A stretch of DNA of 64,000 nt from Octopus sinensis. Lineage: Eukaryota. The notes under the pieces were generated by a model. It made no database searches and was not told where the DNA came from. It saw only the letters and a list, made by a program, of their open reading frames with translations. Shown piece by piece: positions 1-30,203 of this stretch (the first letter of the stretch is position 1; every line of letters begins with the position of its first letter). Made by a program: the position numbers and the translations under genes. The stretch is taken from the NCBI RefSeq assembly GCF_006345805.1, contig NC_042998.1, positions 70,184,001 to 70,248,000 of the forward strand, in the 5' to 3' direction.

Positions 1-239
1 TATCCTTCGAAACGTTTAGTAGATGAAACCTTAGCGACTGAAGAAGGGGATTTTTCGTTGTGCTTATTGTCTTGTATCTCTTTTTTTGCTTGTCTTGTTC
101 CTTGGTTTGTGTCTATGTTTTTCGTCTCTCTATGTGTTCGACGTCTTTTTGGTGTCCTGTACACAATATCGTGTATATGTACATGTAGAGGTAGGTACGT
201 ACATATATGTTTATATATATGCATATGTTCTATTTTATT

Positions 240-240
<1 letters not shown>
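1..240 (+). mobile_element. Penelope-like (pLTR-type) relic, truncated by the window edge
   Basis: CGAAACG and CTGAAGAAGG motifs followed by a T-rich tract. Resembles the reverse complement of 25440-25575 (CTRATGAA.GG...TTGTCTTGT...GTCCTGTAC). The family call is inference. Confidence 0.35.
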
Positions 241-296
<56 letters not shown>

Positions 297-332
297 TTAT
301 TATACATCAATCACACACATACACATATATGA

Positions 333-545
333 AGGTGACGAGCAAACAATCATTTGTTTGGTAGGCTAAATGCTTAGTGGTATTTCGTTCGTTTTTACGT
401 TCAGAGTTCAAATATCGTCGAAGTTGAGACTCAGCCTTGCATCCTTTTGGGGTCGATAAATAAGTACCAGTTGTGCACTGGTGTCATCGTAGTCAACTTT
501 CCCCTTGCTTCGAAACTACTGGCCTTGTGCCAAAATTTGAAACCT
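333..545 (+). mobile_element. SINE family B, diverged copy
   Basis: Core GCCTTGCATCCTTTTGGGGTCGATAAATAAGTACCAGTT and GGCCTTGTGCC-type tail, shared with other copies in the window. Confidence 0.7.
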
Positions 546-3500
546 ATATGTATTGTGTGTGTGTGTTGTGTGTTGATTATTGGCGGAGTTTATGTGTATA
601 TATATATAATGTGTGTGTGTGTGTGTGTGTGTATATGCATATGTAAATATGCACACATGTATATACATACACACATGTTTATGTCACTGTGCATGTACAC
701 ACACATGTGGTAAGAACAACCCCTGACGTACGTCTAGTACCGTCTCTACCACGACTGCTCGGTCTTATTCTTTACTTATATTTTTCAGTCGCACCCTGTT
801 AGGACCCTATCATCCACTATCTCGTTACTTCCTTCAAATGTCAGAGAATGAACTGAGGGAGATTTGGCTGCTTTTGCTACCCAATCAGGCAGTGGTCCCC
901 CATTTGAAACTAAGAAAATGTTTATATTACGAAGTTTATAACACATGCACACACTCGTACGCGCCATTGTTCGAGCGCGCAAACAAACATATACACACAT
1001 TCATACATACACACACATTCAAACACACACATGCGCACACATGTATACATCTTTAAACACACGTATGCATATATGCGCGCACAATTATCTGTGTTTATAA
1101 TTTCTTACATAGTTTGTGTATACGCAGGATAGACTGGACTAAACTGATCGTATAACTGCGTCATTACATTCACCCCTTGTTCACTGTATTTTTTTATTAT
1201 TTTATTCTATACACCCTGTCCCTCTCATTTCTCGAGGGAGTGTATATACATGCATATGTTTAATTAATTTAATATATAATTTCTCTCTCCACTCTCTCTA
1301 TATATTGTTTGTTTTTATGTTATAATACAGTTATACATTAAACTGAAGGATTACTCATTACATTTGGTAAAGTACAAATGTATTATCCTTTAACAAGAAT
1401 AGTTTTGATAATGACTTCGAAGTTTTGGCCAGCTAAGTTTGACAGTGACTCCGAAGTTTTGGCCATCATCGGACACTGTACGTTCATTCGTCCTTTTGAC
1501 ACATCTTGTTTTTAGTCCGACTGGGTTTTGAGCTACCCTCCTCACCAGGCAAGCCTAGTGGTGGTGCCACTTTAGTCACTGGCGACCCGACCATGCAACA
1601 AGTTGTACTGGCTTCCATGTTACCAGTAGCATGCATGGAAGACCTCAAAAGTGACCTGATAGAAAAGAACGGGTGAACTTAGTGTAGGTTCAACGACTAG
1701 CTAGCAAATAACATTGTGTCCTCAGAAATACCAGATTGATGTCCGGCATGCTGGATGACCACTGGGAGTGATGCACCCCTCAGCTTTTGTTAAAGTTGGT
1801 CTGTAGAAGGTCACTGATATAAAACAAGATACGCAGGGAATGGCATTAAACATTTTGGAGATCATTTGCCTGAGCTTCGGATCATGGCGCTCCCACGTTC
1901 TTGACACTGCGACCCATATTGGTACTGAATATCTTGCCCTGGCTTGTCTCTGGACCATGTCTGTAGAGTGGAGAGGGTCTTTGAGATGATGTGCAAGCCT
2001 TATTGGACCTAAACTTTTATGTTACGCAATCGCCGGCGAGGCGACAATCAAGGGTGCTGTGGCGAGCATGGAAGCCGCAGACGCGAACCCGGGTGAAGCT
2101 GACTGGCACAGGAGCTACTGGTATTTTGCATTGACAATGGTCAGAAACGGTCTTCCTCAATCACAGGTGGACAGCCACCATGTATGTATGTATACATGTA
2201 TGAATGTATATATATATGTATGTGTGTGTAAATATACATACATTTTTTTGTGAGTTCTCTACATATATATATATATATATATATAATATATTATAGTATT
2301 ACGTACGTACATACATATTTATACACACGTTTATAAATACAGTATAGAGCGTATACATGATGTTTGAATCGTAGATGTGTATATTAGTCGAAGGTACTAA
2401 ACACCTCACTCGGTCTAAAGATTTGTAACAGATTTCCAGTTTAAAGATACCTTCCTTACTGAAGCCCATCGCTCTCGGAAGCCTTATAACTTGTCATGGG
2501 CACTAATTTTAAAAAGGAAGTAGGCTCGCGCGCACACACGCACACGCACATACACACACACAAGCGAGTGTCTTGTGTGAATTATGAAAACCTGATTGAT
2601 CAGGTCTTTGGTGAAAGGTATTCCAGCGTGGTTATTCCATTTTTTTAAGGGGTATCTACGACTACATTATCTACCTATTAGAGAAGTCAGCTACACAACA
2701 AGGGTTTTAGCAACACCCGAAATAAAAGACGCTTAGATGCCTCCTTAAATAATGAAAAAAAAATTCAGCATTTTTTCTCATTGCGCCCAACGGTGACTCT
2801 CCCTTCATGCTACGTCACTGGTTGGGGGTTTAGTGAGGGTCATTTTAGTTGCTATTTCTAGTACATCGAGTAACTACACTGAGACGTCCTCGTGTTACTA
2901 TAAGCTAGAATAATCATTCTGAAGTAAGTATGTATGTATGTATGTATGCATGTAGCTATCTGTTGTATGGTCAAATGGTTTATGAATTCGCTTCATAACA
3001 ATGAGGTTCCGGGTTCGATCCCACTGCATGGTATGTTGTGCAAATGTAATTTTCTATAGAATCAAGTCGACCGATTCATTCTGAATAAAACTGGGTTGAC
3101 GGAAATTGTGTGGAAGCCTGTGTGATGGATTGCACCTGTAACAGCTTGTTCATACACCGTAGCACGTTGATTCTCACAGACAGTTATTACGTTAAAGGCA
3201 CGTATATCTATGGAATACTCAGCCATTTTCACGTTAATTTACTAAGTAATTTAGCTGATCGAATGACAGAATCGTCTTCGAAGAAACCGGTGGAGATTCA
3301 TATGAATGTGTGTATATACACATACATACATACATACATACATACATACATACATACATACATAGATAGCTCTACGTGTGTACACACACACACACACACA
3401 CACATGTTGAGTGAAGCCGCTGTCTTACAAGTTTTGCCGTTTCGTCGTTTGTATTTTTTAAAACCAATCTTTTCCTCCATTCTCCGTTTTGAGCTTCCTT

Positions 3501-7142: not shown

Positions 7143-7215
<73 letters not shown>

Positions 7216-7592
7216 TATATGTATATATATATGTATATATATATATGTATATATATATATGTATATATATATGTATATATATATATGTATATATATATGT
7301 ATATATATATATGTATATATATATGTATATATATATATGTATATATATATATGTGTTTATATATATATATATGTATATATATATGTTTATATATATATGT
7401 ATATATATATATGTATATATATATATATGTATATATATATGTGTATATATATATATGTGTATATATATATATGTGTATATATATATATGTATATATATAT
7501 ATGATATATATGTATATATATATATGTATATATATATGATATGTATATATATGTATATATATATATGTATATATATGTATGTATATATATAT

Positions 7593-7638
<46 letters not shown>

Positions 7639-7639
7639 T

Positions 7640-7671
<32 letters not shown>

Positions 7672-7683
7672 TATATGTTTGTA

Positions 7684-7715
<32 letters not shown>

Positions 7716-7735
7716 GTATATGTATATGTATGTAT

Positions 7736-7769
<34 letters not shown>

Positions 7770-7797
7770 GTATATATATGTATGTATATATAATAAT

Positions 7798-7879
<82 letters not shown>
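7143..7879. repeat. ~700-bp compound (AT)n/(TATG)n microsatellite followed by (AG)n
   Basis: Seen directly. Source of the spurious YI-rich ORFs. Confidence 0.95.
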
Positions 7880-8441: not shown

Positions 8442-9789
8442 CTCAAGAGAAAGGATCATATAGGCCTAGATACAATATTTGTTGAAGAAAAGATGAGATG
8501 GTCATAGTTGGAACGTTTTTAACAATAGGCGTGACTATTGGGGCCTGATCTTCGACGAGATAACCAACAACACTAGTACCACATCATTATCTAAATGGTG
8601 TGTTTCAAATGTGCTGGAGTAAAACTTTTAACTTATGTTGTCTAGGTTCACCCAGAGAGCATCACGACCTATCCATGTGGAGTAATCACACCTCATCCTT
8701 ACGACGTGTCTGAAGCAAGGTCTAGCTAACAAGTCTCATGAGACTTTTTTTTTAAGAACCATCGAAGGAGATTCGTTCGACCCGCTCGAATTAGTAACCA
8801 AACCTCCCTCAAAACATACCCTATCGTCCTAGAAACAACTTGTTTGATAATGTGGTTCGGGATTTCGTGCACATACGAAAAAAAAAAGGAGGATCACGGT
8901 CGGAATATCTTTGATCATAGATCTGTTCAATTATAGTTGAAGTTAAAGGGCAGCAACGAAATCTGGTTCATCACATGTGTACCTACACACTGTCAACTAT
9001 ACATACACGTGTAGTGCACATTTATATACAAATATTATATCCATAAAAACAGATCACATACATACATACATACATACATACATACATACATACATACATA
9101 CATACATACGCATGTGTATGTATGTACGTAAAGTGCATTAAACGTATTGAGCACTCTTTTAGAAATAGTACTACTTGGTACGCCCTACTTACTCTCTCTC
9201 TCTCTCGTGTCTCAGTGTGTGTATGTGTGTGTTCATACATATCTTTGTATGTATGTAACGTGTGTGTGTGCTATCCTTTTCAAGGCCAAACAAAAGATTG
9301 GATAAGGGTTTTAAAATGATCTTTTCAAGCCATATTGTATCAAATTGTATTTATGAGTGTATGTATATGTGTATGAATGTATTTGTGTGTGTGTGTGTGT
9401 GTATGTGTGTGTGCGCGCGTGCGCGCATCTTTCCTACCACTTTGGTGTGACGTTTAAAGGATTACTAAGAGTGAAGTGTGTATACAATATATAATTTCGC
9501 TCTCAACTTCTTGGTTCATTTTAGGACATTCTATTGAAATGAATTGAAGCTATTGTTCTTTGTTTGGTGCCAGTCACCATAGAGTTGTATGTATGTCATC
9601 TAAGCGACACACACACACATAATATACGCATATACATCACATGCGCGCTTGTTATTTCTCCTGTCCTGTTTTAGATTCCGAGTTCTAAGCACTTTCGCTT
9701 CATTGTTGAGGATGAGAAGTGCATGAATACCATTGCTTCTGTCTACTCTTCAAGGCATTACATCAAGGATAACAACGACGAGGGTGATA

Positions 9790-9921
9790 ATTTCTTTGCC
9801 ACAAGGGCGTCGGATGAAGGAAACATTACAAAGCTGGGTTGCAGTTTGTGTGGTGTGGTTTATGTAAAATCGAGTGAAGAAAAAAACGTGGGGGAGAAAT
9901 GAGATGAAAAGTTTGCACAAA
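9790..9921 (-). mobile_element. 3' terminus of a Tx1/L1-like LINE (continues at 12290-12617, split by the SINE array)
   Basis: Minus strand ends TTTCCTTCATCCGACGCCCTTGTGGCAAAGAAAT. The same GCGTCGGATGAAGGAAAC motif recurs at 12642-12659. Confidence 0.55.
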
Positions 9922-11452
9922 GGCGCAGGAGTGGCTGTGTGGTAAGTAGCTTGCTAACCAACCACATGATTCCGGGTTCAGTCCCACTGCGTGGCACCTT
10001 GGGCAAATGTCTTCTGCTATAGCCCCGGGCCGACCAATGCCTTGTGAGTGGATTTGGTAGATGGAAACTGAAAGAAGCCCGTCGTATATATGTATATATA
10101 TATATATATATATACTGGTGCAGGAGTGGCTGTGTGGTAAGTAGCTTGCTAACCAACCACATGATTCCGGGTTCAGTCCCACTGCGTGGCACCTTGGGCA
10201 AATGTCTTCTGCTATAGCCCCGGGCCGACCAATGCCTTGTGAGTGGATTTGGTAGATGGAAACTGAAAGAAGCCCGTCGTATATATGTATATATATATAT
10301 ATATATATATACTGGTGCAGGAGTGGCTGTGTGGTAAGTAGCTTGCTAACCAACCACATGATTCCGGGTTCAGTCCCACTGCGTGGCACCTTGGGCAAAT
10401 GTCTTCTGCTATAGCCCCGGGCCGACCAATGCCTTGTGAGTGGATTTGGTAGATGGAAACTGAAAGAAGCCCGTCGTATATATGTATATATAATATATAT
10501 ATATATACTGGTGCAGGAGTGGCTGTGTGGTAAGTAGCTTGCTAACCACCACATGATTCCGGGTTCAGTCCCCTTGCGTGGCACCTTGGGCAAATGTCTT
10601 CTGCTATAGCCCCGGGCCGACCAATGCCTTGTGAGTGGATTTGGTAGATGGAAACTGAAAGAAGCCCGTCGTATATATGTATATATATATATATATATAT
10701 ACTGGTGCAGGAGTGGCTGTGTGGTAAGTAGCTTGCTAACAACCACATGATTCCGGGTTCAGTCCCACTGCGTGGCACCTTGGGCAAATGTCTTCTGCTA
10801 TAGCCCCGGGCCGACCAATGCCTTGTGAGTGGATTTTGTAGATGGAACTGAAAGAAGCCCGTCGTATATATGTATATATATATATATATATATACTGGTG
10901 CAGGAGTGGCTGTGTGGTAAGTAGCTTGCTAACCAACCACATGATTCCGGGTTCAGTCCCACTGCGTGGCACCTTGGCAAATGTCTTCTGCTATAGCCCC
11001 GGGCCGACCAATGCCTTGTGAGTGGATTTGGTAGATGGAACTGAAAGAAGCCCGTCGTATATATGTATATATATATATATATATTATATACTGGTGCAGG
11101 AGTGGCTGTGTGGTAAGTAGCTTGCTAACCAACCACATGATTCCGGTTCAGTCCCACTGCGTGGCACCTTGGGCAAATGTCTTCTGCTATAGCCCCGGGC
11201 CGACCAATGCCTTGTGAGTGGATTTGGTAGATGGAAAACTGAAGAGAAGCCCGTCGTATATATGTATATATATATAATATATATATACTGGTGCAGGAGT
11301 GGCTGTGTGGTAAGTAGCTTGCTAACCAACCACATGATTCCGGTTCAGTCCCACTGCGTGGCACCTTGGGCAATGTCTTCTGCTATAGCCCCGGGCCGAC
11401 CAATGCCTTGTGAGTGGATTTGGTAGATGGAAACTGAAAGAAGCCCGTCGTA

Positions 11453-11484
<32 letters not shown>

Positions 11485-12288
11485 ACTGGTGCAGGAGTGG
11501 CTGTGTGGTAAGTAGCTTGCTAACCAACCACATGGTTCCGGTTCAACCCCACTGCATGGCACCTTGGGCAAATGTCTTCTGCTATAGCCCCGGGCCGACC
11601 AATGCCTTGTGAGTGGATTTGGTAGATGGAAACTGAAAGAAGCCCGTCGTATATATGTATATATATATATATATATATATACTGTGCAGGAGTGGCTGTG
11701 TGGTAAGTAGCTTGCTAACCAACCACATGGTTCCGGGTTCAACCCCACTGCATGGCACCTTGGGCAAATGTCTTCTGCTATAGCCCCTGGCCGACCAATG
11801 CCTTGTGAGTGGATTTGGTAGATGGAAACTGAAAGAAGCCCGTCGTATATATGTATATATATATATATATATATATACTGGTGCAGGAGTGGCTGTGTGG
11901 TAAGTAGCTTGCTAACCAACCACATGGTTCCGGGTTCAGTCCCACTGCGTGGCATCTTGGGCAAGTGTCTTCTGCTATAGCCCCGGGCCGACCAATGCCT
12001 TGTGAGTGGATTGGTAGACGGAAACTGAAAGAAGCCTGTCGTATATATGTATATAATATAATGTATGTGTGTGTGTTTGTGTGTCTGTGTTTGTTCCCCT
12101 AGCATTGCTTGACAACTGATGCTGGTGTGTTTACGTCCCCGTCACTTAGCGGTTCGGCAAAAAGAGACCGATAGAATAAGTACTGGACTTACAAAAAGAA
12201 TAAGTCCCGGGATCGAGTTGCTCGACTAAAGGCGGTGCTCCAGCATGGCCGCAGTCAAATGACTGAAACGAGTAAAAGAGTAAGAGTA
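9922..12288 (+). repeat. Tandem array of 11 SINE-A 5' halves (period 193-198 bp) ending in a single SINE 3' tail
   Basis: GCAGGAGTGGCTGTGTGGTAAG starts at 9925, 10120, 10317, 10513, 10707, 10900, 11096, 11293, 11491, 11686 and 11883. Each unit ends in (TA)n. Only the last unit continues into the tail (...CCAGCATGGCCGCAGTCAAATGACTGAAAC). Confidence 0.95.
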
Positions 12289-12289
12289 A

Positions 12290-12617
12290 TATTTAATTCA
12301 TGGATGATACAGTTTCCCTGATACAAGAAGACTTCTAACAAGGGCTAATAAAAACCGCACAGATACAAGATCACCCTGACCACTGGGGGTACAAGTCCTC
12401 CCCCAGCTGTTGTTCTCCGATCAACAGGGGCATGTTTAAAGTAGTTCCATCCACTCTAGCCATTTTCGCCACAGTCACCCACCTTTTGGCAAATTCACTG
12501 AATGAGAGCCAGCACTTCCCTCTCATCTTCACCTCCTTTTACAAATGGTACTCGTTGATGAAAAAGTTGACGGTTTCACTGCAGAGGAAGGTGTCTGTCT
12601 TCAAACTTTTTGAATAA
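12290..12617 (-). pseudogene. Tx1/L1-like LINE ORF2 C-terminus plus 3' UTR, decayed
   Basis: Minus-strand translation LKTDTFLCSETVNFFINEYHL*KEVKMRGKCWLSFSEFAKRWVTVAKMARVDGTTLNMPL resembles C-termini of Tx1/L1-type ORF2 (recognised from memory). Contains a stop codon. Confidence 0.55.
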
Positions 12618-13035
12618 AGATTTCTTTTACTTGTGATAGGTGCGTCGGATGAAGGAAACCTCACAGACAAGTTGTACACAGCATGATGGTGGTGGGTTAC
12701 TTAAAATGAAACGAGGAGAGGCATGTCCGTCGCCAGACTTTGGTGTCAGGGTGTGTTTCAGAATATTCTGGCAGGGCACTAATTTTTGTTAACTGTATTT
12801 TCTAAATTTGAGGGTGTACAGTTGAATAGTGAGGGGGTAAGTGCCGTCCAGTGCATCCCCTTAGCGACGGGCATGAGAAGCGGGAGTAAGAAGAAGAAAC
12901 GGGAAATGAATAAAGCATATACATAGTATACAAACACTAAATATATGGATGATCCAACTAGGATCAATCAGGGAACCTCACACATCCAAGGTAACACTGA
13001 CCACCAAGGGCAAGTGGCCTCGCCTAACTGTTGTT
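12618..13035 (-). mobile_element. Second 3' UTR fragment of the same LINE family, interrupted by a MITE
   Basis: 12642-12710 resembles 9807-9875, and 12995-13035 (CTGACCAC...CAAGT..CCTC.CC.A.CTGTTGTT) resembles 12375-12415. Confidence 0.5.
12722..12875. mobile_element. Small MITE
   Basis: TIRs CATGTCCGTCGC / GCGACGGGCATG. Flanks AGGAGAGG / AGAAGCGG match 6/8, a possible 8-bp TSD. Confidence 0.6.
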
Positions 13036-27340: not shown

Positions 27341-27377
<37 letters not shown>

Positions 27378-27378
<1 letters not shown>

Positions 27379-27575
27379 TCTTTACTTGTTTCAGTCATTT
27401 GACTGATGCCATGCTGGAGCACCACCTTTAGTTGAGCAAATTGACCCCGGGACTTATTCTTTGTAAGCCCAGTACTTATTCTATTGGTCTCTTTTGCTGA
27501 ACTGCTAGGTGACGGGTTGTAAGCACACTAGCATCGGTTGTCAAGCGATGTTGGGGGACAAACACAGGCACACAA

Positions 27576-27624
<49 letters not shown>

Positions 27625-27784
27625 TACGACGGGCTTCTTTCAGTTTCCATCTACCAAATCCACCCACAAGACTTTGGTCGGCCCGATGCTATAGTAGAAG
27701 ACACTTGCCCAAGGTGCCACGCAGTGGGACTGAACCCAGAACCATGTGGTTGGTAAGCAAGCTACTTACCACACAGCCACTCCT
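27378..27784 (-). mobile_element. SINE family A, full-length monomer
   Basis: Head, (TA)n(TG)n spacer and tail. This is the monomeric equivalent of the 9922-12288 array. Confidence 0.9.
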
Positions 27785-27913: not shown

Positions 27914-28783
27914 CTGGGTGCAATGGGTAAATTGTTGCCATTTAATACTTTTAATTTCGCGCATTGTTTGTTTCTGATTTTGTCAACTGCACAGTATAGT
28001 AAGGTCAGTTGGGCACCATCTGTGAGAAAAACAGCACCATGATGCAATTCTTTCTGCCAGAAATTTGGAAACAACATGCTGTACTGCTTGGCATTTGAGC
28101 CAGAAGTTCCAATATGAACATTTCAGAGTGTTTGGGTGCCAATCTAAGGACATTGTGCAATCTGAGGACATGCACCGAGAGTGATAAAAATCAAACATCC
28201 AGTAAATATCATGGTGTTTGGAGTGATCACTAGTGATGGCGATGTTATGCTTCCATTCATCTTCCCACACGGCCTCAGATTCAACATGGAGGCTTACATC
28301 AGGTGCCTGGAGGAGGTAGTGCTGCCCTGGGTCAAGAGGGTGGCTAATGGAAGACTCTATGTTTGACAACAGAACTCTGCATCATGCCTCAGAAACAGGA
28401 GAACTCAGTCATGGCTGTCAAACAATTTCTGCGACCACATCACTCCTAACATTTGGCTCCCCAGATAATTTCCCTGACTGTAATCCCCTTTGTTATTATG
28501 TGTGGGGCACAGTTGAGCGAGAGACCAACAAAACTCCTTGTGAAACCAAAGATGAACTGAAGGCAAAGATTATGGCAGCATTCATCAACTTAAACAAAGA
28601 GACTGTCCAGAAGAGTTGCAGGAGATTCTGAAGTCGTCTGAGGCCATGGTTGATGCCAATGGCAATTTTATTGATTAGTATTTCATGATATTTTTATGTA
28701 ATTTTGGTAAATATATCTGATAAATGAGATGTTAGTGTTTTTACGTTTTTGTGTAATTTACACAAAAGTTTATTCACCGCACC

Positions 28784-29796: not shown

Positions 29797-30203
29797 GACA
29801 CAGGCATGGCTGTGTGGTAAAAAGTTTGCTTCCCAACTGCATGGTTGTGGGTTCAGTCCCACTGCGTGGCACCTTGGGCTAGTATCTTCTACTATATCCT
29901 CAGGCTGACCAAAGCCTTGTGAGTGGATTTGGTAGATGGAAACTGAAATGAAGCCCGTTGTGTGTATATATATATGTATATGTTTGTGTGTCAGTGTTTG
30001 ACCCCCCCCCCACATTGCTTGACAAATGATGTTGGTGTGTTTATGTCTCCGTAACTTAGCAGTTTGGCAAAAAGAACTAATAGAATAAGTACTAGGGTTA
30101 CAAAGAATAAGCCCTGGGGTCGCTTTGTTCGACTAAAGGTGGTGCTCCAGCATGCCTGCTGTCAAATGACTGAAACAAGTGAAAGAACGAAAGAATAAAA
30201 AGA
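29797..30203 (+). mobile_element. SINE family A, full length, abutting a SINE-C (-) at 30204-30447
   Basis: Head, spacer and tail as at 27378-27784. Confidence 0.88.

Follow-up and report, generated by a model that had tools for sequence, protein, structure and literature searches.

Structure of the array and its host repeat

The window, a stretch of 64,000 nucleotides of the octopus genome, carries a SINE array at 9922–12288 in which 11 heads, in units of 193–198 bp, precede a single tail (Table 1). TRF reported the array at 9925–12060 with a period of 197, 10.9 copies, 97% matches and a score of 3959. Together with the head starts, which run from 9922 to 11880, this confirmed the original prediction of 11 nearly identical tandem heads sharing a single tail. 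The heads are 161–164 nt in length, and in units 1–10 each head is followed by a TA tract of 30–35 nt and then CT; the tail is found on copy 11 only. The G said to be missing from the junction preceding copy 10 is indeed absent there, once. Indels of 1 bp, which had been described for copies 4–11, were observed in the heads of copies 4–9 and 11 and, for copy 10, at its start; they look like unpolished long-read errors. The description of the copies as one near-identical set holds in terms of overall matches, but three types follow one another in order (units 1–8, 9–10 and 11), and the label satellite overstates an array of 2.4 kb. Monomers of the same family with one head and one tail were recovered as predicted at 27376–27784 (minus strand, 86%) and 29801–30186 (plus strand, 81%), and roughly 14 further fragments of the family lie elsewhere in the window.

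Table 1. Features of the SINE array and its flanks. Positions are those of the window; sites within heads are counted from the first G.
Feature	Position	Strand	Remark
Older dispersed repeat, left part, host of the SINE block	9769..9921	.	68% to L217 over 9769-9917
Head starts, units 1-11	9922, 10117, 10314, 10510, 10704, 10897, 11093, 11290, 11488, 11684, 11880	+	
Unit 1, parent-A head	9922..10116	+	starts GGCG; 48A, 76C, 86A, 141T, 159C
A-box-like motif, unit 1	9932..9942	+	aligns with D-arm region of tRNA-Lys(TTT)
B-box-like motif, unit 1	9975..9985	+	one base shorter than tRNA T loop (alignment)
Unit 1 TA tract, then CT	10085-10114	+	
Units 2-8, hybrid heads, each with TA tract and CT	10117..11487	+	last-head state at 3, first-head state at 48-159
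Units 9-10, hybrid heads	11488..11879	+	last-head state at 3 and 48, first-head state at 76-159
Unit 11, parent-B head	11880..12041	+	3T, 48G, 76T, 86G, 141C, 159T; typical of young subfamily
Internal (TA)n(TG)n tract of the element	12042..12084	+	read from the sequence
Single 3' tail	12085..12288	+	ends in short AAGAGT-type repeats
Older repeat, right part, collinear with left part	12289..12493	.	71% to L217 over 12299-12493

The element is short (~405 bp), dispersed, non-coding and of high copy number, with at least 43,139 copies counted as exact genome matches to the 25-mer at its 5' end (control 0). Comparison of the head with 27 distinct genomic tRNAs gave Lys(TTT) as the best match (z=5.4) and the top four were all Lys(TTT), although the head itself was not called as a tRNA by Aragorn or Rfam. 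An intact A-box-like motif is present in 11/11 heads. It lies roughly 33 nt from a B-box-like motif that is one base short relative to the T loop of tRNA-Lys and that has lost one G in copies 7–9. The B box consensus is GTTCRANNC. Units 9 and 10 both carry 60A, 61C and 70A, and the changes at 60–61 convert their short B box to GTTCAACCC, which is closer to this consensus. High copy number, length and a head nearest tRNA-Lys(TTT) are all shared with the octopus OK family, which we take to be of tRNA-Lys origin and about 410 bp long. This resemblance in origin and length suggests that the 405-bp SINE of this 2.7-Gb genome with 30 large scaffolds may belong to that family. Ohshima and Okada reportedly described OK, along with OR1 and OR2, as tRNA-derived SINE families of octopus in 1994.

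The array lies within an older dispersed repeat, the left part of which has 9 other genomic matches at 71–93%. In the paralogue L217 the matches to 9769–9917 and 12299–12493 stand adjacent, separated by 22 bases as compared to 14 flank bases in the window, and the whole SINE block therefore has one insertion point. A target-site duplication was looked for at the array and was not found. Such duplications are not left by every SINE family, and many copies of this SINE sit within TA runs, which would mask any duplication; non-simple duplications of at least 7 bp were observed at 2/32 monomers as compared to 19/992 control pairs. A 24-bp match (92%) is shared by 9807–9830 and 12642–12665, on both sides of the array, the host repeat restarting at roughly 12613. 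The minus-strand translation of 12289–12640 contains stops and resembles the end of an L1/Tx1-type ORF2, and 28160–28680 on the plus strand resembles, judged by eye, a decayed remnant of a Tc1/mariner-type transposase. No Pfam match over the cut-off was obtained in 21 window ORFs (the 2 flanking ones and 19 of the 42 of at least 110 aa), the single match below the cut-off in these being zf-C2H2_3 (E=0.008). The window as a whole gave 140 TRF rows, mainly microsatellites, and a degenerate (AT)n tract of 700 bp spans 7143–7838.

Multi-head arrays across the genome

The rarity implied for the array was not borne out, as a single narrow pattern, a generic junction with a short tract, matched 142 exact head-to-head junctions in the genome (reversed control 0). 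A pattern with a longer tract gave 6 matches, with 3 of the 4 placed ones on C27–C29, and a search with the circularly permuted unit gave 716 candidates, of which 40 were scored and five proved to be further multi-head loci. The loci fetched, which were mostly picked by junction matches and include a few duplicates, contained 82 arrays with 232 junctions. Two heads were found in 37 arrays and three in 23, while the longest arrays had 17, 22 and 24, the only three exceeding that of the window. The tail follows the last head immediately in 61/82 arrays. The internal TA tract, which had been proposed as the seed of amplification, marks the limit of the unit in almost every array: 171/232 spacers are at least 80% A+T and 3/232 extend into the TG part. 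In a systematic 200-kb sample of C27–C30, 3 junctions were counted, which extrapolates to roughly 1,100 on these scaffolds (95% range 230–3,200); the underlying sample is thin, with 3 junctions in 35 heads as compared to none in 46.

For placement, 100 of the 142 matches were listed, 89 of these being on C1–C30 and making up 70 loci. Among the matches listed, 52 of the 70 placed loci fell on C27–C30, the four smallest chromosome-scale scaffolds, which at 73.8 Mb make up ~3% of the length; this is an 86-fold excess per Mb. Baseline heads, a small set, were placed there in only 2 of 22 cases (p=5e-8). Young heads are only 2.8-fold denser on C27–C30, and the share expected after correction for density is 8.5%. 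On the large scaffolds junction loci are distal, at a mean of 0.10 of the length vs 0.23 for an equally limited baseline (10 vs 19 loci, p=0.004; this excludes 8 junction loci, from C20 and C25, as well as 3 baseline matches from C25 and C27). The window array is interstitial, lying 70 Mb into the 208 Mb of C2 or at 0.34 of the length, and is an outlier to these favoured regions. According to the passages available of PMC13669787, two other octopus species recombine more toward chromosome tips and sex-specific rates in the group still await direct measurement; Fig. S76 of that paper, on recombination per chromosome, bears on the small-chromosome claim. It is likely that the multi-head class follows recombination-rich regions, a reading drawn from chromosomal position. 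Assembly quality, chromatin, gene clusters or methylation could also cause the bias toward small scaffolds.

The exact junction of the window array had 10 matches in the genome, namely 8 in the array itself and 2 in monomers of an older subfamily. Thus the search that had been proposed for this junction yielded no other multi-head locus, and the junction was rejected as a multi-locus satellite, with only the 2 monomers matching outside the array. Nor does the array fit a true dimeric SINE of the Alu type, which amplifies as a dimer and would place one and the same pair of heads and junction at many unlinked loci: the window junction together with its upstream head occurs only here, and where a junction does recur the heads differ. 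The recurring case is a rare junction found at exactly 4 places (L090, L091, L092 and L209), all of them two-headed and with unrelated flanks. Three of these are on C30, at 0.9, 5.6 and 12.1 Mb, and at one locus the first head belongs to another subfamily. This recurrence is better explained if the junction region was copied from one element to another along a chromosome than by a mobile dimer. That multi-headed copies are mobile, with Pol III reading all heads through to the shared tail and the RNA retrotransposing as one unit, is in our judgement quite unlikely. If this were true, the SINE would stack and renew its promoter like rodent L1, the four unlinked copies of the rare junction would be offspring of a multi-headed master and the small chromosomes would be a nursery for new masters.

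Several fetched loci had further rearrangements. More than 10 multi-head arrays were found within 70 kb at G000:C20:17,020,001-17,090,000 (L188-L194), one of them 22-headed with a tail. Roughly eight tandem tail segments, mostly of positions 76–196, occur at L187:1189-2521 (minus strand), and in both L096 and L097 tail positions 60–198 are repeated twice more. A palindrome at L085:6563-6977 has a TA run at its centre and, set back to back, two identical young heads, one on each strand; the plus-strand head has no tail.

Origin and growth of the array

Six sites (3, 48, 76, 86, 141 and 159) distinguish unit 1 from unit 11 and were used to follow the history of the units between them. With L denoting the state of the last head and F that of the first, six middle units read LFFFFF and two LLFFFF, and unit 8 follows the LFFFFF pattern with one site deleted. 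No conflicting states were observed at the 6 informative sites across the middle units. The breakpoints thus fall between positions 3 and 48 in units 2–8 and between 48 and 76 in units 9–10, and 5/7 of units 2–8 are without substitution relative to the type of unit 2. The variant 86A, common to units 1–10, was found at 2/76 other loci. Units 1–10 are without 76T and 159T, while unit 11 has the common states of the young subfamily, with its 76T present in 14/20 other loci of that subfamily. Judged by these states, parent A and parent B seem to stem from separate source copies. Misaligned exchange within a dimer A-B would yield A, then a hybrid with the 5' part of B and the 3' part of A, then B. 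Unequal exchange is supported because the middle units are hybrids of this very kind, last-head at 5' and first-head at 3', as a two-parent dimer predicts. Across arrays, 85 distinct middle patterns comprised 10 that were cleanly last-to-first, 0 reverse, 71 mixed and 4 flat; as the patterns are not independent, this is a weak test of polarity. Of the two routes originally proposed for the local amplification, unequal exchange thus stands, on the hybrids and on L096 and L097, segmental duplicates with common flanks that differ by one head (3 and 4 heads, respectively), a gain or loss at the level of DNA; rolling-circle copying is not supported.

The array probably arose when the head of a second copy was joined into the TA tract of the resident element, and it probably grew through successive rounds of unequal exchange between heads. 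Repair of a break in this tract would have drawn on another SINE copy with TA before its head, so that a single head was gained without a tail. The hybrids would have followed through misaligned exchange or equivalent template slippage. This course is favoured because heads appear to be added alone, and by the rare-junction loci and the difference between L096 and L097. In 75 arrays (loci chosen by the junction of the window and second copies of duplicates excluded), one full tail was found in 44, two in 1 and none in 30. TA is directly upstream of 30/59 first heads as compared to 18/34 monomers. As two full tails are rare and first heads are not additionally flanked by TA, heads are usually added alone. 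Slippage from an upstream TA run to the internal tract is not supported as a general start, since TA precedes first heads no more often than it precedes monomers, and in the window the first junction did not come from simple slippage as unit 1 has no upstream TA run. Adjacent heads shared a rare variant in 22/46 arrays, as compared to 585/19,561 (3%) of random head pairs, which shows local copying. In the other 24/46 arrays no rare variant was shared, and heads are therefore often imported rather than copied.

A donor with a parent-B head behind the window junction was not found in the assembly, and the CT of that junction is atypical, the majority of junctions reading ATA-GG; reverse transcriptase may have added CT without a template. 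On account of both, the main rival for the first step is a dimer formed at insertion, where reverse transcriptase, having copied parent-B RNA and appended CT, would have switched to a parent-A RNA at its UA tract. In a variant, a head-only cDNA would have been primed at the genomic TA tract, with unequal exchange afterwards. We consider the two taken together unlikely. The single tail is in line with them, and 5/36 terminal full heads (systematic samples and window) have no tail, 4/5 of these ending at or in the TA tract. An RNA route, however, leaves unexplained an excess on C27–C30 that far exceeds the density of young copies there. Private changes also differ along the array, with ~5 in 198 bp of the tail, 3 in 163 of head 1 and 1 in 163 of head 11; the difference is non-significant and is a weak hint that head 11 may have arrived later. 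Insertion of a full SINE into the TA tract of another, followed by deletion of one tail and unequal exchange, appears improbable. About half of the monomers are directly preceded by TA, L048 is a head-head-tail-tail locus and at L020:1799-2025 the TA tract that separates the second head from the tail holds a different tRNA-like SINE, with a 3' end like that of this family (80% over 50 bp). As just 1/45 arrays with a full tail has two, loss of a tail would nevertheless have to be near-obligatory. Rolling-circle copying of an excised head circle, with the array made in one burst, would account for the near identity of units 2–8 and yet is extremely improbable: it is unsupported given two parents and ordered hybrids, the two hybrid types have distinct breakpoints and many other arrays are heterogeneous.

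The count of 11 heads is that of the assembly. A short-read contig of run X1 matched 9607–9943 without difference, spanning the left junction, and a head thus follows the left flank; its depth of 52.7 vs 46.2 for the neighbour is that of single-copy sequence, and X1 is possibly the assembly's own sample and so not independent. Runs X1, X4, X22 and X23 of 24 were compared over 9430–10119 minus the TA tract at 10081–10119, with only 3 and 23 raw reads placed, and go-back joints into 9921 were set aside for their short sides. The X4 contig, which carries another organism label, stops with no loose end at 9920, one base before the end of the left flank; presence/absence polymorphism at the insertion point is a possible explanation. 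That the assembly inflated a shorter array, of for instance 3–5 heads, has a small probability in our estimation. The scattered 1-bp indels and the absence of substitutions between five of units 2–8 speak for inflation, and the read comparison stopped short of a head-to-head junction. Against it, substitution types are ordered, with three changes shared by units 9–10, and the hybrids are free of conflict, unlike consensus errors; the flanks are collinear and the left junction is exact. Retention of the array for a function, as a cluster of Pol III promoters, as TFIIIC sites or as a multimeric RNA, would be suggested by the two promoter-like boxes in every unit. Read-through would also be possible, because the plus strand as far as 12463 has a single T4 run, at 10834 within unit 5. 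Such retention is nonetheless very improbable. The B box is one base short, the array lies within an old repeat, the ORFs of the window gave no Pfam match over the cut-off and Rfam gave no match at gathering score (45 weak matches, mostly to the TA tract). The fold of the unit has z = -2.2 with 4/200 shuffles equally good, the TA hairpin included. The hammerhead core CUGANGA is absent from the normal unit and from the minus strand, the sole match arising from an indel in unit 7. Most likely the array is neutral. A retrozyme, which consists of tandem units with a hammerhead ribozyme, was rejected as there is no core per unit and no Rfam ribozyme.

Relation to known SINE-derived repeats

The array belongs to a kind of repeat already represented by the SINE-derived satellites of squamates and the tandem SINEs of bivalves, and structures like it are common in this genome. 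In the passages available of PMC10702118, squamate sSat1-3 are described as tandem units of 70–290 nt derived from part of a tRNA-derived SINE, and an sSat is defined by at least four such middle units. The window array has nine middle units and a longer terminal unit, unit 11 with the tail, that reaches the SINE end. With respect to occurrence at many loci and distal position, the class has 70 placed loci among the matches listed while the window array is interstitial. Shared with sSat1-3, as portrayed there, are a unit shorter than the SINE, the longer terminal unit, few to many units with copy number varying between related loci, greater uniformity of longer arrays and distal location (PMC10702118). 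The octopus unit differs in running exactly from the 5' end of the SINE to the internal (TA)n tract with both promoter boxes kept. Furthermore, many octopus arrays combine heads of different subfamilies, they are most concentrated on the four smallest scaffolds and the host is an invertebrate. The longest octopus array has 24 units, as compared to up to 1000 in squamates (PMC10702118).

A second relative is found in another mollusc, the blood clam Scapharca broughtonii, for which the accessible part of PMC11481361 gives direct SINE arrays of 4–15 units with a complete tail on the last element only. Unequal recombination is proposed by its authors. The middle units of the clam are truncated in the tRNA head, whereas the octopus heads are complete, and the clam arrays have target-site duplications, as opposed to none found at the window array (PMC11481361). 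Among the titles and abstract openings searched, none described cephalopod multi-head SINE arrays; subscription papers and repeat databases were outside this scope. The passages available of PMC4758252, PMC4824008 and PMC12988792 likewise carry no mention of such arrays in octopus.

The single array is of little consequence and the class may be of more. With it, SINE-to-satellite conversion reaches the cephalopods, the unit being sharply delimited, and arrays of 2 to 24 heads in one genome represent every stage of satellite birth, with the polarity of exchange recorded in the array sequence. If the density of junctions tracks the crossover rate, junctions would offer a convenient guide to how recombination is distributed across genomes of the group. 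A comparable arrangement is found in rodent L1, where promoter-bearing 5' monomers of ~200 bp stand in tandem before one body. Those monomers act as Pol II promoters and move as part of an autonomous element, and the octopus likeness consists in the tandem arrangement of units with promoter-like boxes.
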